Source: Raja brachyura (Eukaryota). From it: a stretch of DNA of 64,000 bases. The first letter of the stretch is position 1; every line of letters begins with the position of its first letter. The notes beneath the pieces were generated by a model. That model searched no databases, was not told the origin of the DNA, and saw only the letters and a program-made list of their open reading frames with translations. Both the position numbers and the translations under genes were made by a program. This document shows positions 11,520-47,296 of this stretch, piece after piece. The stretch spans positions 42,780,001 to 42,844,000 of the forward strand of contig OY740792.1 of the NCBI GenBank assembly GCA_963514005.1. Reading direction: 5' to 3'.

Positions 11520-11558
11520 ATTGTTTGGGACACATTAACCAGTCAGAATATGCAAGAC

Positions 11559-11674: not shown

Positions 11675-11714
11675 ATGATAAGAGCAGCTTTTGTCTGCCT
11701 GCTGATTGTGTCTG
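11675..11714 (+). CDS. TIGIT: TIGIT-like receptor, candidate exon 1 (signal peptide MIRAAFVCLLIVS-G)
   Basis: ATG in a good Kozak context (atcATGA), short hydrophobic leader, phase-1 donor G|GTAGGT matching the phase-1 acceptor of the IgV exon (gives ...LIVS-GIQT-KELET). Intron 1 would be about 20.9 kb, so the link is inferred. Confidence 0.6.
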
Positions 11715-12654
11715 GTAGGTCCATCTTTATTATTCTGGAACTTTTATTTAACTCGACAATGGAGTCACTTCATACAAATAGAGAAACAATGTGTGTAAAC
11801 AGGACCAAATTAAAAGTGTCCTGGACTGAAACTAATAGGGAAACGTGAGCTCAGGTTTAGGATTAGATTTAAGTCTATTATTGCCACAAGTACCAAGGTA
11901 AGTTGGTTTGCAGTGCAAAGATTTTTTTTAGAGGGTCGGAGGAGTAAACAGTCCAGTGTAGCACAACGCACTAGCAAAAAGGTGATTGAATCGTTCAGTA
12001 CAATGGATAAAATAGGCCGGGTCACGGTGCTGACGAGGAGAAAATTTAACTTAGTTTGATAAATCAAATTGCTCAATTTTTTTCCCCCTTCCATTCAAGG
12101 TAACATGTATCTTCTGCACAGAAAGAAAGACCATAACATTTAAAAGCAGAAGTATTTTAAAGCATTGATATTGTACGCACATAATAGTTCAAGCTGCGCT
12201 ATTAACTGCTGTATGTGAGAGAAATAGATCGAGTAAACGCACAGAGTCTCGTGCTCAGAGTAGGTGAATCGAGGACATGGGTTTAAGGTGAAGGGGGAAA
12301 TATTTAATAGGAATCTGGGAGGTAACATTTTCACACAAAGGGTGGTGGGTGTTGGTAAGTTAGGCCAAAGGGTCTGTTTCCATGTTCTGTGAATCTAGGA
12401 CTCTTTTAATTTAGGTTTTAACTCTTTTGGGGTGCGTACCATCACAAAGGAAGGACTGGATATGAGAGATTACAGTTCTGTGGATGCTGTTTAAATGCTG
12501 TTTTTAAAAAAGTACTGGAGTATTATAGAATCAGATCAGTCTCTGTAAATAGTAATGTTTGAACCCATTATAAAATACTGGCTATACCTAACTGGAACAG
12601 TATGTCAAATTCTGAGCAAGGAACAACAGCACAGTTGTGAAATCTTGAGGAAGA

Positions 12655-13452
12655 CACACTGAAGACACTGAAGACACACTCCATTATTATCTAAATGGAG
12701 GCCGATTAGGAAAAGGGGAGATGCAGCGCGACCTGGGTGTCATGGTACACCAGTCATTGAAAGTAGGCATGCAGGTGCAGCAGGCAGTGAAGAAAGCGAA
12801 TGGTATGTTAGCTTTCATAGCAAAAGGATTTAAGTATAGGAGCAGGAAGGTTCTACTTCAGTTGTATAGGGTCTTGGTGAGACCACACCTGGAGTATTGC
12901 GTACAGTTCTGGTCTCCAAATCTGAGGAAGGACTTTATTGCCATAGAGGGAGTGCAGAGAAGGTTCACCAGACTGATTCCTGGGATGTCAGGACTGTTTT
13001 ATGAACAAAGACTGCATAGACTCGGTTTATACTCTCTAGAATTTAGGAGATTGAGAGGGGATCTTATAGAAACTTACAAAATTCTTAAGGGGTTGGACAG
13101 GCTAGATGCAGGAAGATTGTTCCCGATGTTGGAGAGGTCCAGGACAAGGGGTCACAGCTTAAGGATAAGGGGGAAATCCTTTAGGACCGAGATGAGAAGG
13201 ACTTTTTTCACACAGAGAGTGGTGGGTCTCTGGAACTCTCTGCCACAGAGGGTAGTTGAGGCCAGTTCATTGGCTATATTTAAGAGGGAGTTAGATGTGG
13301 CCCTTGTGGCTAAGGGGATCAGAGGGTATGGAGAGAAGGCAGGTACGGGATACTGAGTTGGATGATCAGCCATGATCATATTGAATGGCGGTGCAGGCTC
13401 GAAGGGCCGAATGGCCTACTCCTGCACCTAATTTCTATGTTTCTATGTTTCT
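12655..13452 (+). mobile_element. CR1 LINE, young 5'-truncated copy
   Basis: Uninterrupted 211-aa ORF2 C-terminus (RPHLEYCVQFWSP), (tttctatg)n tail, TSD aggaaga at 12648-12654 and 13453-13459. Confidence 0.93.
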
Positions 13453-14137
13453 AGGAAGATTTATTAGAAATGAGCAGCACTTTCTTTTAAGACAAGAAGG
13501 TGCAAGTTCACATATAATGGTTCAAGCTGACTGCTGTATACCAATTTAATGTTTAACTTTTTTAGGGTGCACATCGCCAAAAAGGAAGGACTGGATATGA
13601 GAGATTAGAGTTATGTGGATAGTTTAGAAAAAATGGGGCTGTTCTCTTTAAGCCAAAGAAGATTGAGAGGAAACCTTATTTAGGCATTCAGATTTATTAC
13701 GAGTCTAAATAGGAGATGGAAGGTCAATCTGTTTTTTTGGAAAAGAGATTTAAATCTTAACAGAGATTTAAATTGATTGGTAAAAGAACGCAAGAGACAA
13801 AAGATAAAATATTTTTGCATGGAGCAGTAGTTCTGATCTGGCAAGAAATGAACAGAGAGGTGGTGGAAGCAAATTCCACCACAAAGGATTGGGTAAATGC
13901 AAAAAAATGGCTAAAAGGGGAAATGGGAGAAAAGCTATAAGACGGATGGAGTATTTGAACAAAAGGCCAGGCCAGCATGTCGGGTTCAATGGCCTCCTTC
14001 TATACTGTAATGATTTTAGTGTGTCTTATTTTTAGGCGATCTGTGAGTCTAGGGTCTGTGAGCAGGTTAGTTTGTGTGGAACAAAGGGTTTAGTAACATG
14101 TTATAGTGTTAACTACAAGATCTGCATTGAAGACTTA

Positions 14138-15328
14138 GGCCCGTATTCTACAAATTTTTTTAAACCCAACAGCAGGTTTAACTGCAATTTAGACCCGACG
14201 GCGGGTTTAAATCCCTGATATTTAGACTAAAATCTAAGTTGTCTTTCTACTAATCGCCAAAGCTTAGACTGACCTTAGACTAGAGTCTAGCTTGCCGCAC
14301 CATTTAAACCCAGCAGGGGGGCAAGTTTGAGGAAGGTTTAAGCTCGCTACGGATAGAAAAAATGGCTGTTCATGTTGAATTCTATAGTGTGTTTGTGTCT
14401 TTTTAAAAAAAATTTATTTTATAGTGATTTATGGTAATCAACATTTTCTCAGAAAAATTTACTTTTAATGTCAGTTAAACAAAAGACGGGATAGGATTTT
14501 TTTTAAAGAGAAATTATTTCATTGTCTATGTAGGAACTTTCCAACTAATGCATGGTGATGATGCAGGTTTATCACAGCCATCTATGTCACGTATAGTCCA
14601 GGAGATGTCATCCCACAGAGCCCAATGGAGAAGAAGCTATATCTCCTTCCCATCAACTCCCCAGCAAGTTCATGACACACAAAATGCTTTCTGCCAGTAT
14701 TGCCGCTTTCCTGGCATGATAGGGGCAATTGGATGCACACATGTCCCAATCAGAAGTTCAGGTGGGGACCTCGCTTAGAGGTTTGTCAATCGGAAGGGCA
14801 GATATTCTGTGAATGTACAGGTAAATGTAAATGTTGAAATCATTTTATTTCTGAGAAATATTGAATGAAATCCTTTCAAATATTTCTCAATTCATTGTTT
14901 TACATTAGAAAATGTAGTTGTCCAAAACAAGAGAAATGTGTCATAGCACCTTTTTTTCTCGATAATTGCAATTTTATCGACTAGTAACGTCAGGAGAAAG
15001 TCTTTCTCGCTGGCATCCCAGTTTCCTTTACGCTGTTTCTTTTTGTTAGCCATGTTGAAGTTGTCCTCTGCTCATGCTTCTGCTATTGCATTGTATATGT
15101 GCAGTACAAGCAGACATCGTCACCATGGCAACTAAAACGCGGCCTAACTTTAGACTCAACAAAAACCAAAGTCTAAAGTTAGACTCGCCTTCGATTTTAG
15201 TCTAACTAAACCTCGCTACCAGAATACCAAACTTTTCTTAAACCGAGCGTCGGGTTTAGTTAGACCGCGCGGCAGGTTTAAGGTGAGTTTAAGGAAAGTC
15301 TAACTTTGCAATTAGTAGAATACAGGCC
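14138..15328 (+). mobile_element. PIF/Harbinger DNA transposon, deletion derivative with remnants of both genes
   Basis: TIRs ggcccgtattctac / gtagaatacaggcc, TTA left flank. + strand HARBI1-like transposase exon at about 14534-14820 (GLSQPSMSR...FPGMIGAIGCTHVPI...FVNRKGRYSVNVQ, one stop) bounded by AG/GT. - strand Myb/SANT-like start at 15053 (MANKKKQRKGNWDASEKDFLLTLL). Confidence 0.88.
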
Positions 15329-15344
15329 ATAGTGTCTACCATTT

Positions 15345-16095
15345 GTGTAGGAAGGAGCTGCTGATGCTGGTTTACACTGAAGATAGATGCAAAATGTTGG
15401 AGTAACTCAGCAGGACAGGCAGCATCTCAGGAGAGAAGGAATGGGTCGAAACCCTTCTTCAGACATGTCAGAGGAGTGGGCGGGACAGAGGTAGTTGGAG
15501 ACAGTAAGACTGGTAGGAGAACTGGAAAGGGGGAGGGGATGGAGAGAGAGGAAAAGCAAAAGTTACTTGAAGTCAATGTTCATACCGCTGTAGTGTAAGC
15601 TACCCAAGCAAAATATGAGGTGCTGTTCCTCCAATTTGCACTGGGTCCCACTCTGACAATGGAGGAGGCATTGGACAGAAAGGTCAGATTGGGAATGGGA
15701 GGGGGAGTTAAAGTGCTGAGCAACCAGGAGATCAGGTCGGTTTAGGCGGAGTGAGTGGAGGTGTGCAGTGAAATGATCGCCGAGCCTCCGCTTGGTCTCG
15801 CTGATATACAGGAGTGGTCACCGGGAACAGCGGATACAGTGGAGGAGGTGCAAGTGAACCTCTGCCTCACCTGAAAAGACTGTCAGAGTCCTTGGACGGA
15901 GTCGAGGGGGGAGGTAAAGGGACAGGTGTTGCATCTTCTGTGGTTGCAGAGGAAAGTACCTGGGGAGGGCGTGGTTTGTGTTGATCAGGAGGGAACGATC
16001 TCTGCATAAAGTAGAAAGGGGTGAAGACAGGAAGATGTGGCTAGTAGTGGGACCCCGTTGGAGGTGGCAAAAATGTCGGAGGATTATGTGCTGTT
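15345..16095 (-). mobile_element. Penelope-like element fragment (older, frameshifted)
   Basis: Homologous to 10752-11330 (atgaggtgctgttcctccaa..., agcctccgcttggtctc..., ggtgaacctctg) plus pLTR tail. Confidence 0.85.
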
Positions 16096-17131
16096 CACCA
16101 GGGAGTTGTGGATATCTCCTACACAAGATAACAAATGATCTCCACAACCTCTTAAATTTCAACTTGCTAGGGCTAAAGTGCACTACTACAATATACGAGC
16201 CCAATGAATTATGTGATGTTCATTTGAAGAGATTTGTATTTAAGCATCTGTTAAGTGCAGGTAATATCTGCCCATGGAGTGAATTTCAGAGGCATAAAGC
16301 AACATGCCAGCACTACTGTAGAGAGTATTTTATTACTAAATGGAAATAATCTCCAAGGTATATATAGATATAAATTATTAGAGATATCTGCGGTTTTCAA
16401 TTGAAATGAAAGCTTAAGAGAAGTGACTGTGGCTGAGTTTGATGTATTACTTGGTTTACATTAAACCTTCAACATCAGCATCTCGTTGTCTACATTGAAT
16501 TTAATATAAAGCATTCAGACAGGTATGTCCAAATACATTATGTACATGCACACAGCATCAGATAAATCCTAACAGTCAGTGTTTCACTAAACTACTAGTC
16601 CATACTTCATTTAGAATTACATAGTCATACAGCACAGAACTAGACCCTTCAACTCAGCTCATCTATACCGATCAAGATGCCTGATCTAAGCTAGTTCAGT
16701 TTACCCATGTTTCCCCCATATCCCTATAAACATTTCCTATCCAAGTACCTGTCCAAATGACTTTTAAATGCTGTGATAGTACCAGTCTCAACTACCTCCT
16801 CTGACAGCTCGTTCCAAATGCCCACCACCCTCTGTATGTTAAAATTGCCCCAAACTTTTTTTTTCTCTCTTTTCTCTAAGGGAGACTCATAGGGGCACCC
16901 TATGAGTCTCCCTTTTTAAAGACTGGTTGATTCTGCTTCCATCATCCTAACTGACAATGGATTCTGGATCCTAACTGCTCTCAGATCAGGTCAACCAGAG
17001 GTTGAGGGGAGATATGTTAGCATATTTAAAATTGAGAGGCATAGGTAGGGGAGACAGTACCTTTCCTCAAGGTGGAAATGTCAAAGACTAGAGGGCATCA
17101 TTTAACGTGAGAGGGGTAAGATTTAGAAGAG

Positions 17132-17530
17132 ACTAGACCAAGTGGGACCCGTTGCTAGAGAGGGGGGGTAGAGAGGGAGGGGGACGGGGGTAGAGAGGGA
17201 GAGGGAGGGAGTGGTGATTGAGGGGTAGGGGCGCGAGGCGTCACAGGGGAGAGACCATCCCCTGAGAGACCATCAGCGAGACCATCTTGTTTATTTTCTA
17301 AATTATTTGAGATTTGTGAACATTTTCATAAAGAACTCTAGAAATAATGCATGAAATTTTCATATAAGGCGATTTTGACGTCATGGCATAAATCTCTATC
17401 GGAATATGTAAACATTTCACCGTTAGCGCGCCATGCGCGCATAATGAATGCCATGCACGCGTCCCGACGCACGCGTGACGTGAAAATGATGTCGTGAAAA
17501 TGACGCGCAAATTACGCCCAAGTGGGACTT
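17132..17530. repeat. Unclassified interspersed repeat starting actagaccaagtgggacccgttg
   Basis: Purine-rich block, gagaccatc triplication, CpG-rich end. ccaagtgggac occurs at both ends. Class (possibly Helitron-type) not determinable. Confidence 0.35.
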
Positions 17531-18284
17531 TGGAGTGTCGGAGGAAATCGGATCATAGGGAGAACAAGCGAAATCCGTACTGACAGCACCCGTCATCATG
17601 AACGAACCCGGGTCTCTGGCGCTGTAAGGCAACAACACTACTGCAGTGGCACTGTGCCGCCCCAATGATCCGGAACACTTTTATCAACATCCCTTCCAGG
17701 TCCTTTATGCTCCAAAGATATTAACTACATCTTCTCCATTTTAGAGGATGAGGTGCAGGAAATTAATTCTAGTTTCATTTTGATAGAAGCATCGTGCTAT
17801 GACCAACACTTTAGCATGACAGGGATCTGCAATAACAAAGGATGGGAGTTTTAGATGTGGGATGAGAGAACTGGAACTTAACCACTAAAGCTCAGCAGAC
17901 ACTTTTTCCAATGGTATCAGGTTCCATTTGTTGGGGCTTTCAGCATCAAACAACTATAGGCTCGCTAAGCTAGCTGATTAAAACATTATAGAAACAAGGA
18001 ACTGCAGATGCTAGTTTAAACTTTTCCTCCAGCCCGACCTGAAAGGTCACTCATTCTTTTTTCCCCACAGCTGCTGCCTGACCCGCTGAGTTATTCCAGC
18101 ACTTTTTCCGCAGAGATGCTGCCTGACCCGCTGAGTTATTCCTGCACTTTGTGTCTATCTTTGATCGACAAATTAGACTCAAAAGCAAATCAGGGAATAA
18201 AAATTTAAGGGGATGATCAGAATAATCTCTGGAAAATAGGCAGAGACCCACATTACAAATTTCATACTGAATTATTAGCTCTTG

Positions 18285-18590
18285 TTTAGTTTTGAGATAC
18301 AGCGCAGAAATTGGCCCTTCGGCCCACCGAGTCCGCGCCAACCAGCGATCCCCGTAGAGTAACCCTATCCTACACACAATAGGGACAATTTACAATTTTT
18401 ACCACAGCTAATTAACCTACAAAAGCGCACATCTTTGGAGTGTGTGAGGAAACTAGAACACCTGGAGAAAACCCACGCAGATCACGGGGAGAATATAGAA
18501 AATCCAGACAGACAGCACCTGTAGTCAGGATTGAAGCCAGGTCTCTGGTGCTGTAAGGCAGCAACTCTACGGCTGTGCCTCCGTGCTGTC
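18285..18590 (-). mobile_element. V-SINE copy
   Basis: Full head, V-domain and tail on the minus strand. Confidence 0.8.
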
Positions 18591-18789
18591 TCACTGGTCC
18601 CTCTATGGATTTAGAACAATTCTCCTGTTTGCCCGTCTTCTGTAAAGACTCCAGTCTAGTGAAATTCTCCAGATGCACACACACATAAAGGAAAGCGAAA
18701 AGGGACCAGGGATGGCCTTTACTCTCAAGATCTGGATGTGGTGGTGCAAAATGTTCTATCACCGCAAGCGTATGCTAACACCTTTAATT

Positions 18790-18970
18790 GGACTTCGCTG
18801 GACTTTATCTTGCACTACCCATGATTCCCTAATGCCGTATCTGTACACTGTGTGTGACTTGATTGTAATCATGTATAGTCTTTCCTCTGACTGGATTGCA
18901 CGCAACAGAAAAGGTTTTCATTGTACCTTGGTACATGTGACAATAAACTAAACTAAACTAAAAGAAAACT
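18790..18970 (+). mobile_element. LINE 3' tail (Rex1/L2-like) ending gtgacaataaactaaactaaa
   Basis: The same tail recurs in minus orientation at about 230-320, 7095-7500, 33310-33560, 33860-34190 and 56880-57130, and in plus orientation at about 60560-60620. Family assignment is tentative. Confidence 0.55.
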
Positions 18971-19379
18971 AAACAATCATGTTAAACCAATTGTGGGATA
19001 AGGTGGAAGTGCGATGTGAGGTAGAAGAATCAGTGGGCATTAGGTTGGGTAATGTGCCTGTTTTGATTCAAAGGCTGAGAGCATGTGAAAGCTGTGTGTG
19101 AGGCCTGCAGTAGTGTGTGGGAGTGTGGGCCCGTCAGACCCACATTCTGATCACACATCATACCGTGTGGTGTCTACTGCTCCAAATTCAACGTTAGCTT
19201 CACACACTGGTCAAAACATTACAACCCAAATGCTCACCTGACTACAAGAAGTCAAGTCAAGTCAAGAGAGTTTATTGTCATGTGTCCCAGATAGGACAAC
19301 GAAATTCTTCCTTGCTGCGGCACAACAGAATATTGTAGGCATAAATACAGAACAGATCAGTGTGTCCATATACCATAGA

Positions 19380-19410
<31 letters not shown>

Positions 19411-19780
19411 TAAACACACAAGGCCATTCAAATGCTTTACCTCACTGGCACACACTACAGGTCTCACATCTTACAGCTTGCGTATGCACCCAGCTTTTGA
19501 GCCAGGACAGGCACATTGCCAAACCTGACACCCACTGGTCCATCTTTCTCACATCGCATGATTATACAAGATGAGCAGACAATCCTTGACAGAGTATGCC
19601 TTAACAAGAAGCTGCAGAAGGGTTCCGGCCTGAAATATCACCCAACCTTTTTCTCCAGAGATGTTTTCTGACCCACTGAGCTTCCCCAGCACTTTGTGCC
19701 GATGTAAAGAACCCCATATGCTGGTTTATACCAGAGAATCCACGCCGGCCACTGATCACCCGTTCACACTAGTTCTATGT

Positions 19781-19916
19781 TGTTAAAGAAGGAACTGCAG
19801 ATGCTGGAGAATCGAGGGTTACGTCTGAAGAAGGGTCTCAACCCGAAACGTCGCCTATCTCCTTCGCTCCTTAGATGCTGCTGCACCCGCTGAGTTTCTC
19901 CAGCTTTTTGTGTAAC
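19781..19916 (+). mobile_element. Penelope pLTR fragment with inverted 5' piece, inserted in a V-SINE
   Basis: Flanked by the 17-bp duplication cacactagttctatgtt. Contains CTGAAGAAGGGTCTCAACCCGAAACGTC. Confidence 0.75.
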
Positions 19917-20164
19917 CCACACTAGTTCTATGTTATCCCACTTTTCCACTCCCCACATGCTAGGGGCAATTTATAGTCCAATTAACCTACAAAGCCACAC
20001 ATATGTGTGTCCTAATTAATATTACACTACCTTTTGCTCTTCCATTACAGCATGGAAATGACCAACCCATTTTCAAAGTGAAATCCTTAGCCAATGCTTC
20101 AGTGTCCCAGCCTATCCCAGATCTACACAGGCCGAGGAGAAGTCGAGCAAATTGAGTTGTATAG

Positions 20165-20600: not shown

Positions 20601-20610
20601 AATGACCACT

Positions 20611-22520
20611 TGGGGCAGCACAGTGGCGCAGCAGTAGAGTTGCTGCCTTATGGCACCAGAGACCTGTGTTTGATCCTGACTACGGGTGCTGTCGGTATGG
20701 AGTTTGTACGTTCTCCCTGTGACCAGGTGGGTTTTGTCCAGGTGCTCTGGTTTATTCCCACACTCCAAAGACGTACAGGTTTGTAGCTTATTTGGCTTTG
20801 GTAAAATTGTATATTACTTCTGGGCGGTTCAGATTAAGAATATGAATTTTTGGTTGGTAAATATGGATCAGGAACCAGCTTGGCTAAAAATGGAAAAGGA
20901 AGACTGTTTACCTTTCGATACAAGTTCGATTCTCCTTGCTCCAAGGGAGGTACAAAAAAAAAATTATAGGGAAAATCCTATAATCTATAGCAATAGACGT
21001 ATTTGGAAACAAATAGTTAAGACTCTACATTTGGATAATATGTCGCTTTGCTTACCAATTATGAATAATCCTTTATTTAAACCCTCTATATTGGATAAGG
21101 GGTTTAGACAATGGAAAACATTAGGAATTATAAGGATAGAACACCTTTACAGGAAAGGGAAATTTCTCTCATTTCATGAGTTAAAAGATATCTATGGATT
21201 GCACCCAAATAACTTGTTTAGGTATTTACAAATTAGAGATTATATCAAATCAAACATGCAAGATTATAAAAATAGAGAACTAGGATTATTGGATGAAGTG
21301 CTCAACAAGCACCCAAATACAGAAAAACTAATAGCATACATATACAATACTCTTTTGGATAGGGAAATTCCAACAACAGAATCATACCGACAAATATGGG
21401 AAAATGAAACAGGCTTATCTATATTAAAAGACACTTGGGAAGAAAGTCTACAACGTATATACCGTTGTTCGTTAAATGCCAGACATACCTTGATCCAATT
21501 CAAAGTATTACATAGATTACATTATTCAAAAACAAAATTAAATAGAATTTTTCCTAACATCTCCCCTATTTATGATAAATGTCAGAACTGAGAAGCTAAT
21601 TTAACGCATAGTTTTGTAACATGTATAAAACTGTTATTGGACTGAAATTTTTAAAATAATTTCTATAGTTCTTAAGATTAAATTGGATCCTGACCCAAAG
21701 CTAATAATATTAGGAGTTTCAGATTCAAATCAAATATTTACAGTAAATCAAAGAAATTGTCTTGATTACTGTTTGATAATTGGTAAAAAATTAATATTAA
21801 AATTCTGGAAGGGAACATTATCCCCCACAATTAAAATGTGGACAGTGGAAATGTTGGAGACGCTGCATTTGGAGAGAATCAGGTTTGTCCTAATGGACAA
21901 ATATGAACTTTTTGAACAAATATGTCTCCATTCACTGATTATATGAAGGGGTAGCTGAGCTCAGCATTGTAACTCAATAAATACCCGGTGGTAGGATTAG
22001 ATGAAAAGATCTATTCTGAGATTTGTATACACGTCTCTATAGATATTGTTATGTGAAATTGTTCCATTCATTGTTAAGATGTATACATCATTTTAAAAAA
22101 ATATATAATAATTGTTCGCTTGTATTTTTTTAAAATTATTTTTATTGTTTGTTTTTTTTATTTGAATTTTTTTAATTTTTTAAAAAATATAATCATAATC
22201 AATTTTATTTAATCACAATCTTCATTGATTATACACCTATTCTTTCACCTCTTTACTTTCTTTACTTTCTAAAAAAAAGCTTATATAAATCATTCCGTAA
22301 TATTAGTATAACTTTTGAAACAAGTTAAATGTGTATTTGAAAAACTGTTATATCATTGGCAATATGCATTGCTTCTAATAAAAATATTTTAAAAAGCAAA
22401 AAAATTGTAAATTGTCCCTGAAGTGTAGGATGGTGCTAGTGAAAGGGGTGATCGTTGGTCAGCATGGACTCAGTTGGCTGAAGGGCCTGTTTCCAAGCTG
22501 TATCTCTAAAGTCTAAAGTC
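20611..22520 (+). mobile_element. V-SINE split by an L1 insertion
   Basis: SINE head and V-domain at 20611-20811, SINE tail resumes at 22401-22520. Confidence 0.8.
20812..22400 (+). mobile_element. L1-type LINE 3' fragment
   Basis: ORF2 C-terminus (NLFRYLQIRDY, IQFKVLHRLHY, zinc-knuckle remnant), AT-rich 3' UTR, AATAAA and A-tail, TSD aaaattgta at 20803-20811 and 22401-22409. Confidence 0.9.
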
Positions 22521-32575: not shown

Positions 32576-32905
32576 GTATTCAAACAAAAGAGCTTGAAAC
32601 TAGTGAGTATGTAACTGCTGTGAAAGGCAGTGCAGCAGCATTACATTGTGCCTCTTCAAACAAAGATCTCAAACTGGTATTAGTTGAATGGGAGAAGACT
32701 GAAAACAGAACAAAACTCGTTGTGTTCCATGTGGCCACAAACGCAACAACTCTCCACAATGAACGAATAAAACTGGGAGTTAATGGACATCGATCCACGA
32801 TCACAATCACAGGAGTTCAGCCAGCAGACAGCGGCGGGTACACCTGCATATTTCATACCTTTCCAGACGGCAAAATAGAGGGCAAAGTATACTTGGATGT
32901 AAACG
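32576..32905 (+). CDS. TIGIT: TIGIT-like receptor, IgV exon (IQTKELETSEYVTAVKGSAAALHC...VEWEK...DSGGYTCIFHTFPDGKIEGKVYLDVN)
   Basis: Polypyrimidine tract plus CCCAG acceptor, donor G|GTAAGC, phase 1/1 as typical for Ig exons. Canonical Cys, Trp and DxGxYxC. YTCIFHTFPDG resembles human TIGIT YFCIYHTYPDG (nectin-family T(F/Y)P motif). N-glycosylation sequons NRT and NAT. Confidence 0.88.
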
Positions 32906-33564: not shown

Positions 33565-33852
33565 TTAGTTTAGTTTAGAGAAACAGCATGGAAACAAACC
33601 TTTTGGCCCACCCAGTTCGTACCGACCAACGCTCCCCCGGGTACTAACACTATTCTACACACTAGGGAAAATTTTAAATTCTTACCAAAACCAATTGACC
33701 TACAAACCTGTAGGTCTTTGGAATGTGGGAGGAGACCGGAGGACCCGGAGAACAGGGGGAACGTGCAAACTCCATACAGACAGCACCAGCAGTCAGGTTC
33801 AAACCTGGCACTGTAAGGTAGCAACTCTACTGCTATGTCACCGTGCTGCCCA
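33565..33852 (-). mobile_element. V-SINE copy
   Basis: Reverse-complement match. Confidence 0.78.
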
Positions 33853-37849: not shown

Positions 37850-38745
37850 ACTTCTATCACTGCGGCGGCACAACTCACGTTGCAGCGGCCCCTACAGTCT
37901 GTCTGTCTTTTTTTTTGTCTAGTTAAATGTAGTTGTGCGTGTTTTTTAATACTGTTTTTAACCGTGTATATGTGGGGGGCGGAGGCGGGGGCGGGGGGGG
38001 GGGGAGGGAAGGGGAAAACTTAAAAAAATCTCTTGCCTGCACGCGAGACCCGACCTTTTCCCTGTCGGGTCTCAGTTGTCATTGGGGCCTAGTACCATGG
38101 AGCGGCCTCCAACCGGAGGGGGCTTCAGTCGCGGAGCCTGCGGACTACTCACCATCGTGGGGCTGGCCAGCTTTGGAGCGTGGGGCGCGGTGGTGGCTGG
38201 TTGCTGCGGCCCGACTGGAGCTCGGAGGCTCCAGCTGCAGACCTTTAGACGGAACATCGGGAGCTCGCGGGTCCGGGAGGGAGTCCGCTTTTCGGAGCTC
38301 CCGCAGCGCAACTTCTCCAGCCCGTGTTGCGGGGTTGGAACGAACCAGGGCGGGGCTGTACATCGCCCGGTGCGGCTTCAATGGCCGCGGAACATTTCAG
38401 CGCCCGCCGGGGGCTCCAACTTTGTGACATTTAGACCTGGAGCGGGGCCGTACATCGCCTGGCGCGGCCTTAAATCGCCGTGGGACTTAACATCGCCCTC
38501 CTGGGGCTTCGACATCGGGAGAGAAATGGTGCAGGGGAAAGAAAAGACTTTGCCTTCCATCACAGTGAGGAGGAGATTCACTGTGATGGATGTTTGTGTA
38601 AATTGAAGTGTTTGTATGTTTTGTAGGAATTGTCTTTGTTTGTATGGCTGTGGAAACGGAGTTACGTTTGAGCCTCCCTGAGGTTCAAATGACATGGAAT
38701 AAAATATTGTATTGTAATATATTGTATATTGTATTGTATTGTACT
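37850..38745 (+). mobile_element. GC-rich non-autonomous retroelement with LINE-like tail and (attgt)n end
   Basis: Internal sub-repeats (ggggc.gtacatcgcc), hairpin ccatcacagtga/tcactgtgatgg, tail aatgacatggaataaa followed by (tattg)n. Confidence 0.5.
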
Positions 38746-39484
38746 AACTGCATGTAGAATGTAGAAATGTTTCCTAACTTCACTCGTGTAATCCCCAACA
38801 CTATTGTTTTGCCCTAATCCTAGAGTTAATAAGTAGTAAACATACTTTTTGCCTAGAAATCTGCCCCTTTCAGAAATTAATTTCCAAGAAATGCATGCCT
38901 ATCTTCACTGCTAGTGACCAATAATAATTTTTTGAGGCATTTCCCAATTAGTTATCAATATTATAAGGGTGGCACAGTGGCACAGCGGTAGAGTTGCTGC
39001 CTTACAGCACCAGAGAGCCAGGTTTGATCCTGACTAAAGATGCTCTCTGTACGGAGTTTGCACTTTCTCCCTACGATCGCATGAGTTTTCTTCGGGTGCT
39101 CCAGTTTCCTCCCACATTCCAAAGACATGCAGTTTTGTAGGTTAATTGGTTTCTGTAAATTGTTCCTAGTGCATGGAATAGAACTAGTGTCCAGGTGATC
39201 ACTGGTCAGCATGAGCTCAGTGAGATTAAAGGGCCTGTCCCACTTAGGCGATTTATTCGCCGACTGCCGTGACAGTCACAGTCATAGCAGGTCGTCGAAA
39301 AACTGGCGACTGGGCCCCCCCTACGACAATGTCTACAACAACCTACCACCTCGTCTACGTCAAGCTACCGACAACCGGCGACCCATTACGACGTCCACCT
39401 ACGACGACACATACGACAACCTACGACCACACAGGCGACAATCTACGACAACCGACGTCAACCTATATCCGCCCGCGACAAGCT

Positions 39485-40235
39485 TGATCCCTGGGATCCC
39501 TGGGGCGAGATTGATCCCTGGGATGGGGGGACTGTCATATCAGGAAAGATTGAAAAGCCTAGGCTTGTTTTCACTGGGGTTTAGAAGGATGAGGGGGTAT
39601 CTTATAGAAACATGTAAAATTATAAAAGGACTGGACAAGCTAGATGCAGGAAAAATGTTCCCAATGTTGGGCAAGCCCAGAACCAGGGGCCACAGTCTTA
39701 GAATAAAGAGGAGGTCATTTAAGACTGAGGTGAGAGAAAACCTTTTCACCCAGAGAGTTGTGAATTTATGGAATTCCCTGCCACAGAGGGCAGTGGAGGC
39801 CAAATCACTGGATGGATTTAAGAGAGAGTTACACAAAAAGCTGGAGAAACTCAGCGGGTGCAGCAGCATCTAAGGAGCGAAGGAGATAGGCGACGTTTCG
39901 GGTCGAGACCCTTCTTCAGACTGGTCAGGGATCAGGGAAACGAGAGATATAAACAGTGATGTGGAGAGATAAGGAACAATGAGTGAAAGATATGCAAAAA
40001 AGTATTGGTGATAAAGGAAGCAGGCCATTGTAAGCTGTTTGTGGTGTGAAAATGAGAAGCTGAGATTTAAGAGAGAGTTGGATAGAGCTCTAGGGGCTAG
40101 TGGAGTCAAGGGATATGGGGAGAAGGGAGGCACGGGTTATTGATAGTGGACGATCAGCCATGATCACAATGAATGGCGGTGCTGGCTCGAAGGGCCGAAT
40201 GGCCTCCTCCTGCACCTATTTTCTATGTTTCTATG
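39485..40235 (+). mobile_element. CR1 3' fragment nested in the MITE
   Basis: ORF2 C-terminus, (ttctatgt)n tail, TSD caagct at 39479-39484 and 40236-40241. Confidence 0.9.
39831..40063 (-). mobile_element. Penelope pLTR fragment nested in the CR1
   Basis: Nearly identical to 10431-10660, flanked by the 16-bp duplication gatttaagagagagtt (39815-39830 and 40064-40079). Confidence 0.88.
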
Positions 40236-40927
40236 CAAGCTACGACCCTGTCGGCGACAACTGAAGACAATTCAGTCACCGGTACTGTCGCTGGTTGACG
40301 TAGGTTGACGTAGGTAGTCGCCAATGGAAATCATCAGTCATCCCCGGCGACAACCAACGTCACCTGGCGACAACCTGCGTCATCCTGGCGACAACCTGCG
40401 TCATCCTGGCGACGACCTACGACATACGACCTACGACAGCACCTACGACAGGAGAAGACAAGCTATGTCAATCCCGCAGTCGGCTAAAGGTTTTGAACAT
40501 TTCAAAATCCAGCAGCGACCAGAAAAAAGTTATGACTCTTTAGGCGACTTGAGGAGACAACTCACGACAACACAGGTGTCACCCCATGACCATGTGGAGA
40601 CAGCCTAATCGCCTGCATTGGTCACAAAACTTGCCCTTAAAGGCCTGTTTCCATGCTAACCCAATTTAAACCAATTTAAAAAGTTCAATTCTTGATAAGT
40701 CTCCTAATCTTCTAAATACTGGAGACTTATTTGCTTGGTGTGCAGATATCATTCTGGTAAATCTACAGTGTACTTTGACCAATCCCAATGCATCTTCCTT
40801 ATATATAATACGGATGTTCCAGGTCATGAGATTTGGTCTAACAAGGCTTTGTATATCAGGGACATGACTTCTAAGCCTTAGCAAAGATCAGCAGTCAATT
40901 AGAGTTAGTTATTTTATATAAATATTG

Positions 40928-41168
40928 GGAGGCACAGTGGTAGAGTTGCTGCCGGGTTCGATCCTGACCTCGGCAGCTGTCTGTGTGGAGCTTGCACGTG
41001 CTGTGGTTTCTCTCACATCCCAAAGATGTGCAGGTTTTTAGGTTAATTGGCTTCTGTAAATTGCTCCTCGTGTGTGGGATAAAACTAGTGTACAGGTGAT
41101 CGATGGTCGGCATGGACTTGTTGGGCTAAAGTGCCTGTTTACACACTGTATCTCTAAACTAAACAAAC
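40928..41168 (+). mobile_element. V-SINE copy
   Basis: Head, partially deleted V-domain, tail. Confidence 0.72.
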
Positions 41169-41354
41169 TTAATCTGTCATGGCATTACAATGATCTATCT
41201 ACACGGGGCCCTAAATCTTCTTGTGCCCACTAGATGTACTTGCATTGAAATTCATTTACGGCTACTCCAGTTAGGTTGTGGGCTTTGTTATTATCACACG
41301 AGGTGCAAATGGTACCAAACATCACACAATCATCAGCGAACAACCCTTCTTCTG

Positions 41355-41663
41355 ACTTTAGACTTTAGTGATACAGTGCGGTAATAAGCCCTTCAGCCCA
41401 CCGAGTCTGCGCTGACCAGCGATCACCCCGTACACTAATACTATCCAACACACTAGGGACAGTTTAAAATTTTACCAAAGCCAATTAACCTACTAACCTG
41501 CACGTCTTTGAAGTGTGGGAGGAAACCGGAGCACCCGGAGAAAACCCACACGGTCACAGGGAGAACGTACAAATTCTGTACAGACAGCATCCATAGGCAG
41601 GATCAAACCCAGGTCTCTAGTGCTGTAAGTCAGCAACTCTACCAAAGCACCATTGTGCTGCCC
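41355..41663 (-). mobile_element. V-SINE copy
   Basis: Full-length reverse-complement match. Confidence 0.8.
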
Positions 41664-43559
41664 ATAGATACGTAGCCTTTGCAGATAATTACTTGCAGTG
41701 CTGTAAAAATGGGACACTTGTTAACTCGTTCTATGATGTCATTGTCATCTATTCTGTAGTTAACAAGGAGAGTTAACATGACTGCTGGGGATTCAGGGAT
41801 CGCACTCAGTTCTTCCTTAAAGACAGAAGTACAATTTTAATCCCGAGACCAACATTCCTTCTGGATCACCCATTCTTTATTTGTAATATTCTAAATTCTA
41901 TAATTATCTGCAATAAATAGAGTCTTTCACTTCTGACACAGCCTTTCATGTTGACACAAGGAATTGCAGATGCTGGTTTGCCACAGAATGGTGCAGCTGG
42001 TGGAACTGCTGCCCAAAGACCCAAGTTCAATCCTGACCTCGGGTGCTATCTGTGAGGAGTTCGCACGTTCTCCCTGTGACCGCACGGGTTTCCTCTGATT
42101 TCCTCCCACATCCCAAAGACGGGCAGGTTGTAGGTTAATTGGCCTCTGTAAATTGTTCCTAATGTGTAGGGAGTCGATGAGAAGCTGGGTAACATAGAAC
42201 TGGTATGAACGGGTGATCCATGGGCATTTGACCTGTCTTTCCCTTTCACCCCCATTCTCCTGCCTTCTCCCCATAACCCCTGATACCCTTACTAACCAAG
42301 AATCTGTCAATCTCTGCCTTAAAAATATCCCTTGACTTGTACTCCACACCTGATTGTGACAATGAGTTCCACAGATTCACCACCCTTTTACTAAAGGAAT
42401 TCCTCCTTATCTCCTTTCTAAGGTACGTCCTTTTCTTCTGAGGCTATGGCCTCTGGTCCTAGACTCTCCCATTAGTGGAAACATCTTCTCCACATCCACT
42501 CTACCCAGGCCTTCCACTATTCGGTAAGTTTCAATTAGGTTCCCCTTCATCCTTGTAATATGTTAACCCAATAATTCCTGGGATCATTTTCGTAAACCTC
42601 CTCATAGTATGGGCCTAAAACTGCTCACAATACTCCAAATGCGGTCTGACCGGTGTCTCATAAAGCCTCAGCATTACATCCCTGTGTTTGTATTCCATTC
42701 CACATCCCTGTTTTTATATTGTGGTAAGTATGCAATAGCTATTTGTTCATCTGGGGAGATATTTGGTTGTACATTGACAGCTGCTTTTAAATCCTCAGTT
42801 GTATCAGTTTATGAATTAGTCAGTTTGGTTTACTTTCTCAAATGTCCATTTTAAATAAAGTTAGTTCTTCATTGGTAAATTTTACACTGGTTCAGCTGTA
42901 ATTTGTTACTGCATTATAAATGTGATGTTAGAACCACTTGTAAATGTGTCACATTTTTCATTTGTAACACATTCAAGGTGATGAATACATTATATGTGAG
43001 TTTTGTGCCAATATAAAAAAAAGGATATGCACTACCATACTAGGTTTAACTATGACAATCATAATTCTGCAAATCCCGTAAAACTTTTGAATAGACGCAC
43101 AGAGTCTTTTGCCCAGAGTAGGGGAATCGAGAACCAGAGGACATAGGTTTAAGGTGAAGGGGAAAAGATTTAATAGGAATCTGAGGGGTAACTTTATCAC
43201 ACAAAGGGTGGTGGGTGTATGGAATGAGCTACCAGAGGAGGTAGTTGAGGCGGGGACTATTACAACATTTAAGAAACAATTAGACAGGCACATGGATAGG
43301 GCAGGTTTCAAGGAATATGGGCCAGATGCAGGCAGGTGGGACTAGTGTAGATGGGACATGTTGCGACGGCGTAATGTGTTGGCAAGTTGGGACGAAGGGC
43401 CTGTTTCAACACTGTATGACTCGATAACGCTTGGATTTTCAGAAAAAAAAGTTGTTTATATCTAAATGCAAACAAAATTTACAATGCCGTATGCGTTCTA
43501 AATTCAGTTAATTTGATGCGTATTTCTAATGCTCAAATAAATGCGTTATCTTCTTCCAG

Positions 43560-43660
43560 GTAAGAAACTAACTTCTAATCTGGCTACAAATATTATTGCA
43601 AGTGTGGTTCCTGTAGTAATTGCGATTGGAATCCTGTTTTTACTGCTATACTTTGGACAT
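43560..43660 (+). CDS. TIGIT: TIGIT-like receptor, stalk/transmembrane exon (GKKLTSNLATNIIASVVPVVIAIGILFLLLYFGH)
   Basis: Acceptor tcttcttccag, donor CAT|GTAAGT, phase 1 in and phase 0 out, about 21 uncharged hydrophobic residues. Too short for the ORF track. Confidence 0.85.
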
Positions 43661-44123
43661 GTAAGTAATACAAATTTACAAGTATAATTGAGGACGAAAG
43701 TTACACTAAATCAGAAATGTAATAAACATTTTGTAATTGCTACACAGATCTTTTACTCCTTGCCCTCCCTAAATTATAACCATTCAGCCGTGTTCTTTTT
43801 TGCTTCCAATTATTTTCATACTTTTTTTTCCTGCTCATTTAAAAATCCAGATGGGATTTCACCAAAACACTATATAACAAGGGAATAACTTCTTCACTTT
43901 TGTATTCTACTTCCCTTGAAAGAAAGATCTTTAACCTCATGTTTCAGTCATACCCTCTTCTAAATCTATATCTCATTATATATATATTTTTAGCTTCCAT
44001 CTACACCAGTTATTGAATCTCCAAATTCATCTGCAAACCGTGATAAATGAATCATTTTTCAGGAAGAAACTGAGGCCCTACAGCATATCCCAGGGATCAT
44101 CATTTGTTAAAACCTGCTCATAA

Positions 44124-44435
44124 GCGGCACGATGGTGCAACGGTAGTTGCTGCGTTACAGCGCTTACAGCGCCGGTGACCCGGGCTCGATCCCGACTATG
44201 GGTGCTGTCTGTACGGAATTTGTATATTCTACCCGTAACCACGAGGGTTTTCTCCGAGATCTTTGGTTCCCTCCCACACTCCAAAGACATCAAGATTGTA
44301 GATTAATTGGCTTGGTATAAGTGTAAATTGTCCCTAGTGTGTGTAGGATAGTGTTAATGTGCGGGGATCGCTGGTCGGTGCGACTCGGTGGGGCGAAGGG
44401 CCTGTATCCACATTATATCTCTAAGCTAAACTAAA
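44124..44435 (+). mobile_element. V-SINE copy
   Basis: Full-length match with ctaaa tail. Confidence 0.8.
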
Positions 44436-44889
44436 GAGAATACACTTACTATTCTTTACTCTGTTCCAGTTTACCAATCAAATTTCATGCTGTCTGATCC
44501 TCTCCATCGTGTATGCTCTGTCTGACTAATAATCTAGTTTGCAGAACCTCAGTAAGTGCCTGGAAGTCCAGAGACATTGCCAGAGACTAATCCAGAGACA
44601 TTCAAGCAAGGCAATGATCTTAAAACATTCTCCAATTGTGCGCCTCACCCTTCAAAATCCAAGCTGATTCTTAGATTCTTTTTGCCTTGTTGCTGAGTTT
44701 TCTCTGCCAGAATAGCACCAACAATCATATCCTTATGATTGGTTCTGGAGGCTTTTTTCTCCTACCCGTTCCCCCGTAACTTAGAGGCATCTGCAAGGTT
44801 TCAACTACACAGCACAGTTTGTGATTCAAATAATGCTTTAAAAAATAATGGCAGGAAATTATCCATTCAGATTGTTCACAGCCATTTAT

Positions 44890-45208
44890 TTTAGAAATGC
44901 AGCATGGAAACAGGACCTTCGGCCCACTGAATCCATGCCGACCATCGATCACCCGTTCCTATCAGTTCAGTCTTATCCTACTTTCTGATCCACTCCCTAC
45001 ACACTAGGGGCAATTTACAAAGGCAATTTAACCGGCGAGCCCACATATCTTTGGGATGGGGATGAAGCTGGAGCGACTGGAGAAAACCCACGCAGTCACA
45101 GGGAGAATGTGGACACGCCACAAAGACAGCATCCGAGGTCAGGATCGAACCTGGGTCTCTGGAACTGTGAGGCAGCAGCTCTACCAGCTGCACCACTGTG
45201 CTGCCCAC
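44890..45208 (-). mobile_element. V-SINE copy
   Basis: Reverse-complement match. Confidence 0.75.
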
Positions 45209-46490
45209 AATTGGGTTTCGATGAAACAAACAACACAAGTTCTATTTTGTTGACAATGAAATTCCATTGGGTTTTTTTCAGTACAGTTCAATAATTACTT
45301 GAACTATTAATGTCTATCGTAAATAGGTAGATAAAATATAGGCTCCAAAAATTAGATCCCTCAAAACAGCATAGAAGAGACGGGAAATTGTGGGAGGTGG
45401 GATGATAGTAATCAGAGCATTATGGGAGGTGGGGGGGGGGAGGAACAGTCAGTAAGACAGGGGATTGGTCTGGCATAACCATATGTTGCAAGATCATGGG
45501 GAGGCTGAGGTGAAGTGGCAAGAGGTCATGGTCAAAGACCTTGAGGTGGGGAATGTGATAGAGGGCCTTTGCTTTGCAGGGTATTAACAAATGGAAGATC
45601 TACCAACTTCCTGTAACCTGCTGGATTTAGCAAAGGGTGGGAAACATTGCCATCATGAGTTAGGAAGAAAAACACTATGATTGAACCGCTCAGTCTCCTT
45701 GAAAGATTTCAGTGATTGACTCGATTCCCAAGAGCTGAATGAGTCAAACACCTGGCATCTCAGCTCTGTAAACACCTTTATGGGGTGTGTTTGCGTTGGA
45801 TCGGGTACTAGTTTCAGCTTTGTATTGGATTAACCTTTCATATGATCCATGCTTACCTGCGTGTTTGGAGTTAATTCTTCTCCTCGATACCTACTGTAGT
45901 AGAACAACTCCAATGGTCCAAATAGCTGTTGGCAATATATGATACTTTCCTTCCATCTATTTCAACCTTTTCAGCATCTTTTCTATTTCTTTCTCATCCA
46001 TTACTTTATTCAGCACTCCCTGAAATGCATCTTTGTTAATAGAATCACCTTCTCCTTGTCTTTGAGAGTTCCACATTCTACCCGTCAGTATTCATTATTA
46101 TTATTATTATTAATAATATTATTATTAGTGACAACTTTGAGACAACAGTTACACTTGTAAAGGACTCCAGGACCCTAGTTTGGAAACTCAAAGTCCACCA
46201 CATCAAATCCTTTCATTTTATTAGGGATCTGATGTTCAGAATGCAGAATTAAAGGATGTTCCTTTTGGAAGGAGATGAGAAGGAATTTATTTCGTCAGAG
46301 AGTGTTGAATTTGTGGAATTCTTTGCCACAGAAGGCTGTGGAGGCCAAGTCAATTGATATTTTTAAAGCAGAGATAGTTTCTTGATTAGTATGGGTGTCA
46401 GGGGTTATGGGGAGAATGGGTGTCAGGGGTTATGGCAGGGGTTATGGCAGGAGAATGGGGTTAGGAGGTAGAGATAGATCAGCCATGATT

Positions 46491-46699
46491 CTTGGTTCTT
46501 GGTTCTTGGTCCTCCAAAAATATTCCAAATGGAATTTAAACTGGAGGTGGCGGGGGGGTGGACTTAAGCAAAAAAAGGTTCTTGGAACAGAAGAGTTACC
46601 TTAAATTTAGTTGCGTCTGGTTGGGTAACTATGGTAGGGTGAAGACTATTCCATGCTTTAATTGTGTGGGGCAAGAATGAATTGGTGTACACTGATTGC
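46491..46699 (-). mobile_element. Short 3' fragment of another LINE clade (RTE-X/L2-like) inserted in a CR1 tail
   Basis: Minus-strand peptide YTNSFLPHTIKAWNSLHP (SFFPRTIxxWNxL-type LINE C-terminus), (accaaga)n tail, tgatt duplicated on both sides. Confidence 0.6.
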
Positions 46700-46839
46700 T
46701 GATTGAATGGCGGAGTGGATTTGATGGGTCAAATGGCTTAATTCTGCTCCTATTACTTATGACCTTATAACCATGTAATGTCAGGTAATGCATTTTATAA
46801 ATATATTCCCATAATCCTGTGAAACCTTTTTTGTACCAG

Positions 46840-47010
46840 AGGAATAAAAGAATCCACACACCAAACCAGATCAATGTTCTACTGCATAATACATCAGACG
46901 CCAATAACCAAGACACTGCTAGACGACCAAGCAACACAATTCCACCCAACTCTGATGGTGAGGTCCCAGACACCGACTACTTTAGTGTTGCATTAAGAAC
47001 ATCACTTTAA
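46840..47010 (+). CDS. TIGIT: TIGIT-like receptor, terminal cytoplasmic exon (RNKRIHTPNQ...DGEVPDTDYFSVALRTSL*)
   Basis: Acceptor ccttttttgtaccag, phase 0 matching the TM exon, basic stop-transfer RNKR, C-terminal DYFSV-ALRTSL aligning by eye with human TIGIT DYFNV-LSYRSL, stop TAA, downstream AATAAA. Confidence 0.82.
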   Translation, partial: RNKRIHTPNQINVLLHNTSDANNQDTARRPSNTIPPNSDGEVPDTDYFSVALRTSL

Positions 47011-47290: not shown

Positions 47291-47296
47291 AATAAA
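47291..47296 (+). terminator. Candidate polyadenylation signal of the TIGIT-like gene
   Basis: AATAAA about 280 nt after the stop codon, followed by GT/T-rich tgtgttgtttg. Confidence 0.6.

Follow-up and report, generated by a model that had tools for sequence, protein, structure and literature searches.

TIGIT is targeted clinically as an immune checkpoint, and how it signals is debated. CD226 has two Ig domains and CD96 has three, and to our knowledge mammalian TIGIT has no converted partner gene. PD-1 has reportedly been shown in recent work to originate at the base of the jawed vertebrates. A 2026 survey (PMC13262535; Tables 1, S2, and S3) places TIGIT in Amniota and scores its conservation in Chondrichthyes as 0. 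CD226 is described in PMC4647266 as activating via a pYxN-Grb2 motif, the motif class found in the second gene reported below (gene A). In the titles, abstracts, and passages of the literature covered here, a scope outside which most subscription journals fall, neither a chondrichthyan TIGIT nor such a pair of genes was described.

The window, a 64,000-nucleotide stretch of the genome of the skate Raja brachyura, contains a gene for a receptor with a single IgV domain (gene B), and an IgV exon 96% identical to that of gene B lies upstream on a different tail. Our main reading (probability, about 0.7) is that gene B is the skate TIGIT ortholog and that repeated gene conversion keeps the two genes tuned to one predicted nectin.

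Structure and product of the window gene

The four exons of the window gene (Table 1) are bounded by GT donors and CAG acceptors, and with intron phases of 1, 1, and 0 they splice to a product of 213 amino acids. Joins of four random pieces of matching lengths were stop-free by chance in only 4 of 20,000 trials, and the product aligned without gaps to the little skate RefSeq model XP_055500539.1 (213 amino acids); identity to the little skate ortholog was 85% in the IgV and 83% from stalk to tail. The preliminary description had proposed this exon model, with the same phases and length, and the splice sites, the random-join control, and the alignment confirm it. The motifs quoted there for the two ends of the IgV are present in the sequence, and the guess of a cartilaginous fish was borne out, the animal being a skate. 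The phrase "35 kb of repeats" was accurate for about half of the gene: further copies within 464 kb exist for 49.5% of its 35,336 bp. Exon 4 is single copy across the skate genome.

Table 1. Positions of the window gene exons and of nearby candidate signals (numbering of the window)
Feature	Position	Strand	Remark
Exon 1: ATG and 13-residue leader, phase-1 donor	11675..11714 (40 nt)	+	14/14 residues identical to the little skate RefSeq model
Exon 2: single IgV (C38, W52, C104; TFP key motif; two N-glycosylation sites)	32576..32905 (330 nt)	+	
Exon 3: short stalk followed by an uncharged transmembrane helix; phase-0 donor	43560..43660 (101 nt)	+	
Exon 4, coding part: cytoplasmic tail, then TAA	46840..47010 (171 nt with TAA)	+	
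Candidate polyadenylation signals: AATAAA at 47149 and 47291	47149..47296	+	Putative, from sequence only

The claim that the gene lacks a second Ig exon was upheld by a tblastn search with 94 proteins of 250 to 800 amino acids, including multi-Ig nectin, CD200-like, and CD96 proteins, which matched exon 2 and one 31-amino-acid repeat-type stretch outside the gene. A similar tblastn search did recover the V and C exons of neighboring genes. With its one Ig exon, the gene differs from the two- or three-Ig layout of CD96, CD226, CD200, and nectins and has the type I, one-IgV layout of TIGIT; the orthologous RefSeq models (213 to 239 amino acids) also have one IgV each. The tail carries the juxtamembrane motif RIHTPNQINV and, as had been noted, a tyrosine, but Y204 (TDYFSV) is the only one in the cytoplasmic region, compared with two in TIGIT.

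Relationship to TIGIT

TIGIT was the top match to the window gene in searches of the PDB (E value, 3e-9, versus 2e-6 for nectin-1), with profiles (4e-14 versus 4e-11), and by fold (TM-score, 0.85, at 26% IgV identity). Such best hits are weak evidence because a CD96-like skate exon also matches TIGIT (E value, 2e-8) and because the fold search gives CD226 and nectins scores close to that of TIGIT. In IgV trees, which contained no named CD226, CRTAM, PVRIG, or tetrapod CD96, the chondrichthyan and bony-vertebrate TIGIT domains formed one group. Its SH-aLRT support was 99 in a quick tree of 129 rows, from which isoforms, near-duplicates, and domains below 40 bits or 90 amino acids had been removed. 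The group was found at 91/84 in a 48-row tree, with one CD200-like long branch inside it, and at 92/93 in a 43-row tree after five rows had been dropped (two outgroups from contig C12, which is the contig of the window, both P0028 domains, and one compositionally odd row). A profile built only from the tails of 18 bony-vertebrate TIGITs matched Mobula tails (E value, 6e-5 among 13,144 targets) and none of the nectin, CD200-like, or gene A tails in that set; on exon 4 of the window gene itself, the E value of this profile was only 0.71.

Human TIGIT adjoins ZBTB20 and has DRD3 on its 5′ side. These were the two flanking genes that had been put forward as a synteny check, and one of them is in place. 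ZBTB20, identified by its BTB exon and by zinc fingers with 81 of 84 residues identical to PDB 9jzt, lies 41 kb 3′ of the window gene on the opposite strand. DRD3 does not flank the gene: no match to a receptor-like GPCR motif was found in the 411 kb upstream, and a DRD3-like gene is located together with a QTRT2-like gene at 55.6 to 55.7 Mb of the same contig, 12.8 Mb away. The contig also carries CD200-like exons about 0.42 Mb from the window gene. The name CD200R was not adopted for the upstream V exons at 42.594 and 42.662 Mb of C12, to which the PDB search gave no name. A search for the GAP43 family had no match anywhere and was uninformative, and the SIDT family was matched on contig C26 only.

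Taken together, the architecture, best hits, IgV tree, tail homology, and ZBTB20 synteny support the presence of a TIGIT ortholog in a cartilaginous fish, as the preliminary description had suggested, and the window gene is very likely that ortholog. The locus also argues for the origin of the receptor at the base of the jawed vertebrates that was proposed there, against the 2026 survey. The ortholog is less new than was then thought; RefSeq already assigns the automatic name "TIGIT-like" to such genes in 8 of the 9 sharks and rays found.

Probable ancestral and derived motifs

All 14 chondrichthyan IgVs contain T(F/Y)P, which PMC8981293 defines as the key motif of the PVR/nectin IgV family. 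Two of the three nectin-family submotifs, (V/I)(S/T)Q and AX6G, occur in none of the 14, and AX6G is likewise absent from the named TIGITs of Amia, Acipenser, frog, and turtle. The tail tyrosine that aligns with the ITT-like Y225 of TIGIT is shared by all 16 aligned proteins, which range from skate to mammal. Its +2 position in the window gene is occupied by serine (YFSV) rather than by the asparagine of a pYxN (Grb2) site. Half of the chondrichthyan B tails (5 of 10) have this asparagine, as do 17 of 18 bony-vertebrate tails; on these alignments, the serine reflects a change in one lineage, and the asparagine is not missing from the family as a whole. All 10 chondrichthyan B tails lack the ITIM tyrosine (Y231, six residues past Y225). 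Among the bony-vertebrate rows, 7 of 18 have it, including named frog, turtle, and mammal TIGIT; it is absent from the fish-type rows, including named Amia and Acipenser TIGIT. On this comparison, the ITT-like tyrosine and the TFP key appear to be ancestral, and the ITIM tyrosine looks like a later addition to TIGIT. Mutagenesis is said to have shown that Y225 matters more than Y231 in TIGIT, which agrees with a late ITIM.

A linked gene with a nearly identical IgV exon

The preliminary description considered one gene only and missed a paralog, probably gene converted, just outside the window. This paralog, gene A, lies 36 kb upstream of the start codon of gene B. Its IgV exon is identical to exon 2 of gene B at 317 of 330 nucleotides (96%), with matches at 105 of 109 third codon positions, and the DNA identity ends at the splice sites of that exon. 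The skate A and B proteins are 93% identical in the IgV and 21% identical in stalk, transmembrane segment, and tail, and their leaders are also unrelated. A matching pair in the horn shark has values of 95% and 23%, and identity across species is 43% for the A tails and 40% for the B tails. AU tests on the IgV tree reject monophyly of A and of B (p-AU, 4e-12 and 9e-56), whereas the tail tree separates A from B at 100/99. Because the IgVs group by species and the tails by gene, the mosaic is likely the result of long-running gene conversion limited to one exon, as in CEACAM1/3. Four residues are common to skate A and B and unlike both other skates.

The gene A tail has one or two YENV (pYxN) motifs, with a spacing of 22 residues. 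An A-type gene is also present in the chimaera Callorhinchus. Both genes together were found in only two species, skate and horn shark, and in both the binding domain is homogenized between linked genes with unrelated tails, as in paired receptors. The charged transmembrane residue or ITAM expected of the activating member of such a pair is missing from gene A. Nothing in the atlas matched the gene A tail at 0.9 or above. The RefSeq name "TIGIT-like" covers both A and B, so some shark records under this name carry a non-TIGIT tail and should be read, with caution, as gene A rather than TIGIT.

Predicted nectin binding and signaling

A model of the window IgV in complex with a skate nectin V domain scored 0.85, versus 0.35 for the best control; among solved eukaryotic pairs, 71 of 105 reach the mark used for such complexes, as do 2 of 126 unrelated pairs. 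The runs agreed in at least 98% of contacts, with a partner pLDDT of at least 93. Similar complexes have already been solved, and since the prediction resembles TIGIT-nectin structures, its pass may be memory; the model does not name the specific ligand. The IgV is predicted to bind the nectin by a double lock-and-key, in which F109 of the TFP motif would enter the AX6G pocket of the nectin and a nectin phenylalanine would pack on L49, V63, and H65 of the window IgV. None of the 8 skate A/B differences falls among the 21 modeled interface residues, and none falls on the C, C′, C″, F, and G strands (P = 0.023); avoidance of these strands was not counted as a general rule because 2 of 6 differences lie on them in the horn shark.

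We propose that repeated gene conversion keeps the IgVs of A and B tuned to one predicted nectin ligand while their outputs differ. Ligation of the window gene product would lead to phosphorylation of Y204 and dampen lymphocyte activation as in mammals, and docking at Y204 is more likely to be of the SHP/ITSM type than of the Grb2 type because serine replaces asparagine at +2. Gene A might recruit Grb2 via YENV and deliver a different, most likely activating, signal, thereby taking on a role like that of CD226 with a TIGIT-type head. This is the weakest step, and opposite signaling is not implied by YxN, because YxN serves inhibitory TIGIT and activating CD226 alike. We put forward tentatively, at somewhat less than an even chance, that an activating twin of TIGIT, so far undescribed, persists in cartilaginous fishes, with a Grb2-binding YENV tail and an IgV exon that has been repeatedly overwritten, in both directions between it and TIGIT, since before the shark-skate split. 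If so, the TIGIT checkpoint would be of the same age as the jawed vertebrates, bony vertebrates would have lost an ancient counter-receptor that was built into it, and the ITIM in the name of TIGIT would be a late addition. A converted twin would be a natural experiment, with the same head on a different tail, a pattern that in CEACAMs has been linked to pathogens exploiting the inhibitory receptor.

Alternative explanations

It is plausible but doubtful that gene A is an old converted paralog that signals in the same direction as TIGIT, inhibitory or modulatory, via Grb2-SHIP or an ITIM-like SxYxxV site, the two forming a redundant or tuning pair rather than an opposing one. The lack of a charged transmembrane residue and of ITAM spacing in gene A is consistent with this, as is the inhibition by human TIGIT mainly via its own pYxN motif described in PMC10439114. 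The second gene A tail motif of horn, white, and basking sharks fits the ITIM consensus (as defined in PMC12151841) with serine at −2, but the skate has proline there, which is not an ITIM residue. Moreover, the converted pairs described in PMC2832619 and for Siglecs are opposite in sign, and the retention of two unrelated tails since the shark-skate split argues for distinct outputs. We consider it unlikely that gene A is instead decaying in skates, its IgV identity reflecting passive conversion by a neighbor with no selected pairing in the skate lineage. The 57-nucleotide first tail exon does have a stop in the spliced frame, with its YEN motif in another frame, a shark-like terminal exon was not found in skate gene A, and none of the 7 batoid species having a B record yielded an A-type record. 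However, skipping of the 57-nucleotide exon would give a 198-amino-acid product, the exons for leader, IgV, stalk, transmembrane segment, and last YENV are open with canonical splice sites, sharks have intact RefSeq gene A models with cassette isoforms, and the A/B identity is limited to a coding exon.

Two further explanations concern the identity of the sequences themselves. The possibility that the window gene is a chondrichthyan single-IgV offshoot of CD200, CD96, or nectin, TIGIT-like by convergence, is much weakened and appears improbable. All of the best trees place its IgV with TIGIT, but the phylogenetic check suggested earlier succeeded only to that extent, as AU tests left groupings with CD200-like sequences (p-AU, 0.079) and with CD96 (0.11) unrejected. 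The nearby CD200-like exons, the NCBI name "nectin-1-like" for the Rhinoraja ortholog, and the two absent family submotifs point the same way as these tests, whereas the adjacency to ZBTB20, the single IgV, and a homologous TIGIT tail with the same tyrosine speak against an offshoot, as does the presence of distinct CD96-like, nectin-like, and CD200-like exons at other sites of the skate genome. A false duplication in the assembly is a very improbable source of the upstream IgV exon, since it differs at 13 of 330 nucleotides, has unrelated flanks, and sits between its own leader and transmembrane exons, which are orthologous to shark gene A; the independent horn shark assembly shows the same mosaic. 

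Comparison with known systems

The RefSeq TIGIT-like records XP_055500539.1, XP_067896693.1, XP_067895990.1, and XP_041066634.1 are direct orthologs with automatic names only. Mammalian TIGIT (PDB 3ucr, 3udw, and 5v52) shares with the skate protein the leader, one IgV of similar fold, a transmembrane segment, a tyrosine tail with the tyrosine homologous to ITT-like Y225, and the TFP key. Unlike it, the skate IgV, 26% identical, lacks (V/I)(S/T)Q and AX6G, and the skate gene lacks the ITIM tyrosine, has serine for asparagine at +2, is not adjacent to DRD3, and has a converted partner gene. In CEACAM1/CEACAM3, Siglec-5/14, and Siglec-11/16, as described in PMC2832619 and elsewhere, the IgV of an inhibitory receptor and that of its partner are likewise homogenized by conversion, and the partner has another tail. 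Those pairs, all mammalian, signal through ITAM-like tails or DAP12, whereas gene A has neither, only YENV, and the chondrichthyan pair is older than the divergence of sharks and skates. CD226 (DNAM-1), CD96, and PVRIG belong to the same PVR/nectin IgV family, but the IgVs of CD226 and CD96 are only distantly similar, whereas the one IgV of gene A is a copy of that of TIGIT.

A probable TIGIT orthologue in the window

The window spans C12:42,780,001-42,844,000. Gene B, the window's gene on contig C12 of the 2.7-Gb genome, had been read in a preliminary description as four exons with intron phases 1, 1 and 0, a 213-aa membrane protein and no second Ig exon in intron 2. This structure was confirmed at the sequence level, with splicing itself deduced: splice sites are canonical, and the 213-aa RefSeq model of the little skate aligned to the product without gaps. 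The product comprises a leader, an IgV domain, an uncharged transmembrane (TM) segment and a tail with a single tyrosine (Y204). Random joins of exon-matched lengths were stop-free in 4/20000 cases, and a search for a further Ig exon within gene B found none. In the IgV tree, gene B and the skates Leucoraja and Rhinoraja formed one group (support, 100/100). The window's long open reading frames are pieces of LINE-type and other retroelement frames, the element types being recognized by eye.

Features of genes A and B and of their surroundings
Feature	Location	Strand	Remark
Gene B exon 1	window 11675-11714	+	canonical splice site
Gene B exon 2	window 32576-32905	+	canonical splice sites
Gene B exon 3	window 43560-43660	+	canonical splice sites
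Gene B exon 4	window 46840-47010	+	canonical splice site
Retroelement ORF fragments	window 3443-5811, 10755-11534, 12649-13353, 20680-21943, 39199-39870, 47845-48234, 57754-59363		
Gene A leader	C12:42,734,991-42,735,054		
Gene A IgV exon (second copy)	C12:42,745,692-42,746,021		genome search
Gene A stalk exon	C12:42,746,858-914		
Gene A TM exon	C12:42,747,472-540		
Gene A tail exons	C12:42,754,697-753; C12:42,755,321 onward		
Tandem V exons (L004, L006)	C12:42.371-42.374 Mb	-	look CD200-like
Ig-receptor cluster (L054, L062-L064, L009-L018)	C12:42,443,262-42,682,826		upstream of gene A
Cluster V exon	C12 42.443 Mb	-	
Cluster V exon	C12 42.544 Mb	-	C exon at 42.542
Cluster V exon	C12 42.594 Mb	+	
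Cluster V exon	C12 42.662 Mb	+	C exon 42.680, TM 42.683
Candidate TM and tyrosine-tail exons	C12 42.6186 and 42.6205 Mb		similar to TM end of gene A

TIGIT ranked first for gene B by sequence and by fold (structure model pLDDT, 94), with small margins, and a CD96-like skate exon likewise matched TIGIT (E, 2e-8). When a profile from five ray and skate proteins was compared with 1.84 billion representatives, shark relatives came first, followed among single-Ig proteins by named TIGIT of bowfin, sturgeon, frog, turtle, wallaby and gopher (names checked for 20 matches). Chondrichthyan and bony-vertebrate TIGIT IgVs grouped together in a tree of 129 rows (SH-aLRT, 99) and in two further trees (91/84, with one long branch intruding, and 92/93), all built without CD226, CRTAM and PVRIG and with outgroup labels such as CD200-like given partly by our own recognition instead of database names. 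The best trees agree with the earlier orthology proposal, yet in AU tests a link of gene B to CD200-like domains was not rejected (p = 0.079), nor was one to CD96 domains (p = 0.11).

Two independent lines, tail homology and synteny with ZBTB20, tip the balance to TIGIT. The tail tyrosine is invariant in 16/16 aligned proteins, and an RI(H/R)xPxxIxV-like juxtamembrane motif is common to the tails of gene B, bowfin, sturgeon and tarpon. A profile built from nothing but the tails of 18 bony-vertebrate proteins matched Mobula tails (E, 6e-5, among 13,144 targets); gene B exon 4 topped the local open frames, yet with an E of just 0.71. ZBTB20, recognized by its BTB exon and by zinc fingers identical to PDB 9jzt at 81/84 positions, lies 41 kb downstream of gene B on the opposite strand, which we take to be the arrangement at human TIGIT. 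DRD3, the other human neighbor and also expected as a flank, sits beside QTRT2 on C12 too, but at a distance of 12.8 Mb. These results suggest that gene B is a TIGIT orthologue (probability, about 0.88).

Gene B is already annotated automatically: in 8/9 chondrichthyan species with a B record the name is TIGIT-like, and in one it is nectin-1-like. In the literature searched, which lay outside subscription journals and bioRxiv supplements, neither a TIGIT of chondrichthyans nor the A/B pair was found described. PMC13262535 places TIGIT in Amniota and scores it 0 for both Chondrichthyes and Actinopteri. Proteins P0052 (Hemibagrus), P0030 (Megalops), P0051 (Hymenochirus) and the unnamed P0067, P0095, P0144 and P0055 fall in the TIGIT group; these teleost and frog proteins keep the tail tyrosine and are recorded as hypothetical or uncharacterized. 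Judging by such sequences, bony fishes seem to have an unannotated TIGIT.

A twin gene with a near-identical IgV exon

Gene A, a separate gene upstream of the window, has an IgV exon that differs from that of gene B at 13/330 nucleotides (8 amino-acid-changing and 3 silent codons; third positions identical, 105/109), and the DNA identity stops at the splice sites. Its leader, TM segment and tail match Heterodontus, Carcharodon, Cetorhinus and Chiloscyllium and, more distantly, Callorhinchus. Elasmobranch A-type tails bear YENV motifs, two of them 22 residues apart in three complete shark models; the first of the skate's tail exons lies out of frame, and omitting it gives a 198-aa product with one YENV. 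The C terminus of P0015 (Chiloscyllium XP_043557455) matches a repeated LINE fragment and is probably mispredicted.

Skate A and B are 93% identical in the IgV and 21% from stalk to tail, and those of horn shark are 95% and 23% identical, whereas between the two species the IgVs are 52 to 55%, the A tails 43% and the B tails 40% identical. A and B split at 100/99 in the tail tree, and the IgV tree rejected an A clade and a B clade (p-AU, 4e-12 and 9e-56). A recent duplication would have copied flanks and tails too, and purifying selection would not have kept silent sites. An old leader and tail around a new IgV is the pattern left by exon-limited gene conversion, which very likely accounts for the identity. 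Homogenization recurred in several lineages, since four residues common to skate A and B differ in both other skates and a two-residue deletion seen in Mustelus B recurs in gene A of three further sharks.

Other Ig-family loci

CD96-like and nectin-3-like exons are found on contig C6 and a nectin-1-like exon on C26. The CD96-like V exon lies ~160 kb from the nectin-3-like exon (L005, L073; C6:103.34-103.50 Mb), on a different contig from TIGIT. The tandem V exons L004 and L006 group with shark two-V proteins that NCBI names nectin-1-like, though these have a CD200-like look, and a PDB search gave no name for two of the cluster's V exons. Three nectin V exons ~83% identical, on small contigs (L007, L072 and L080 on C51, C882 and C1034), point to an expanded nectin family and are candidate ligands.

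Ligand and signaling compared with known receptors

Of the three IgV submotifs defined for the PVR/nectin family (PMC8981293), T(F/Y)P is the only one kept in chondrichthyan IgVs (14/14); (V/I)(S/T)Q and AX6G occur in 0/14, and AX6G is also missing in named fish, frog and turtle TIGIT. A complex model of the gene B IgV with the skate nectin V domain of C1034 scored 0.85 versus 0.35 for the best control, which speaks for likeness rather than binding and names no particular nectin, because similar complexes are already solved. The mark for such models is reached by 71/105 solved eukaryotic pairs and 2/126 unrelated pairs. The contacts agreed between runs to 98% or more, and partner pLDDT was 93 or higher. 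In the model, F109 enters the AX6G pocket of the nectin, whose phenylalanine rests on L49/V63/H65. According to PMC7286890, shark has nectin-1 and nectin-3 and PVR is confined to placentals, so the ancestral TIGIT ligand must be another nectin.

The human ITIM tyrosine is absent from chondrichthyan tails (0/10) and from fish-type rows. The TIGIT +2 asparagine is present in 5/10 chondrichthyan and 17/18 bony-vertebrate tails and is lacking in Raja brachyura, where TDYFSV matches the ITSM consensus TxYxx(V/I) (PMC12151841). In human T cells, inhibition is carried by Y225 and N227, not Y231 (PMC10439114). We infer that gene B encodes an inhibitory receptor whose ancestral signal passed through its one tyrosine; in the Raja brachyura lineage, SHP-type docking is likelier than Grb2.

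None of the 8 A/B differences falls within the 21 predicted interface residues, so A and B likely read one ligand. Against a working pair stand the co-occurrence of both genes in two species only, the failure to find an A-type record in seven batoids and the out-of-frame exon of gene A. Gene A has neither a charged TM residue nor an ITAM. In activating CD226, pYxN motifs recruit Grb2 (PMC4647266), and the motif fits either sign for gene A because pYxN recruits Grb2 in inhibitory TIGIT too. Skate TIGIT joins a known family, to which the converted twin adds a paired-receptor feature. As proposed for skate A and B, CEACAM1 and CEACAM3 have IgVs held alike by conversion (PMC2832619), an analogy by which an activating signal from gene A would be tentatively favored, at slightly below even odds.
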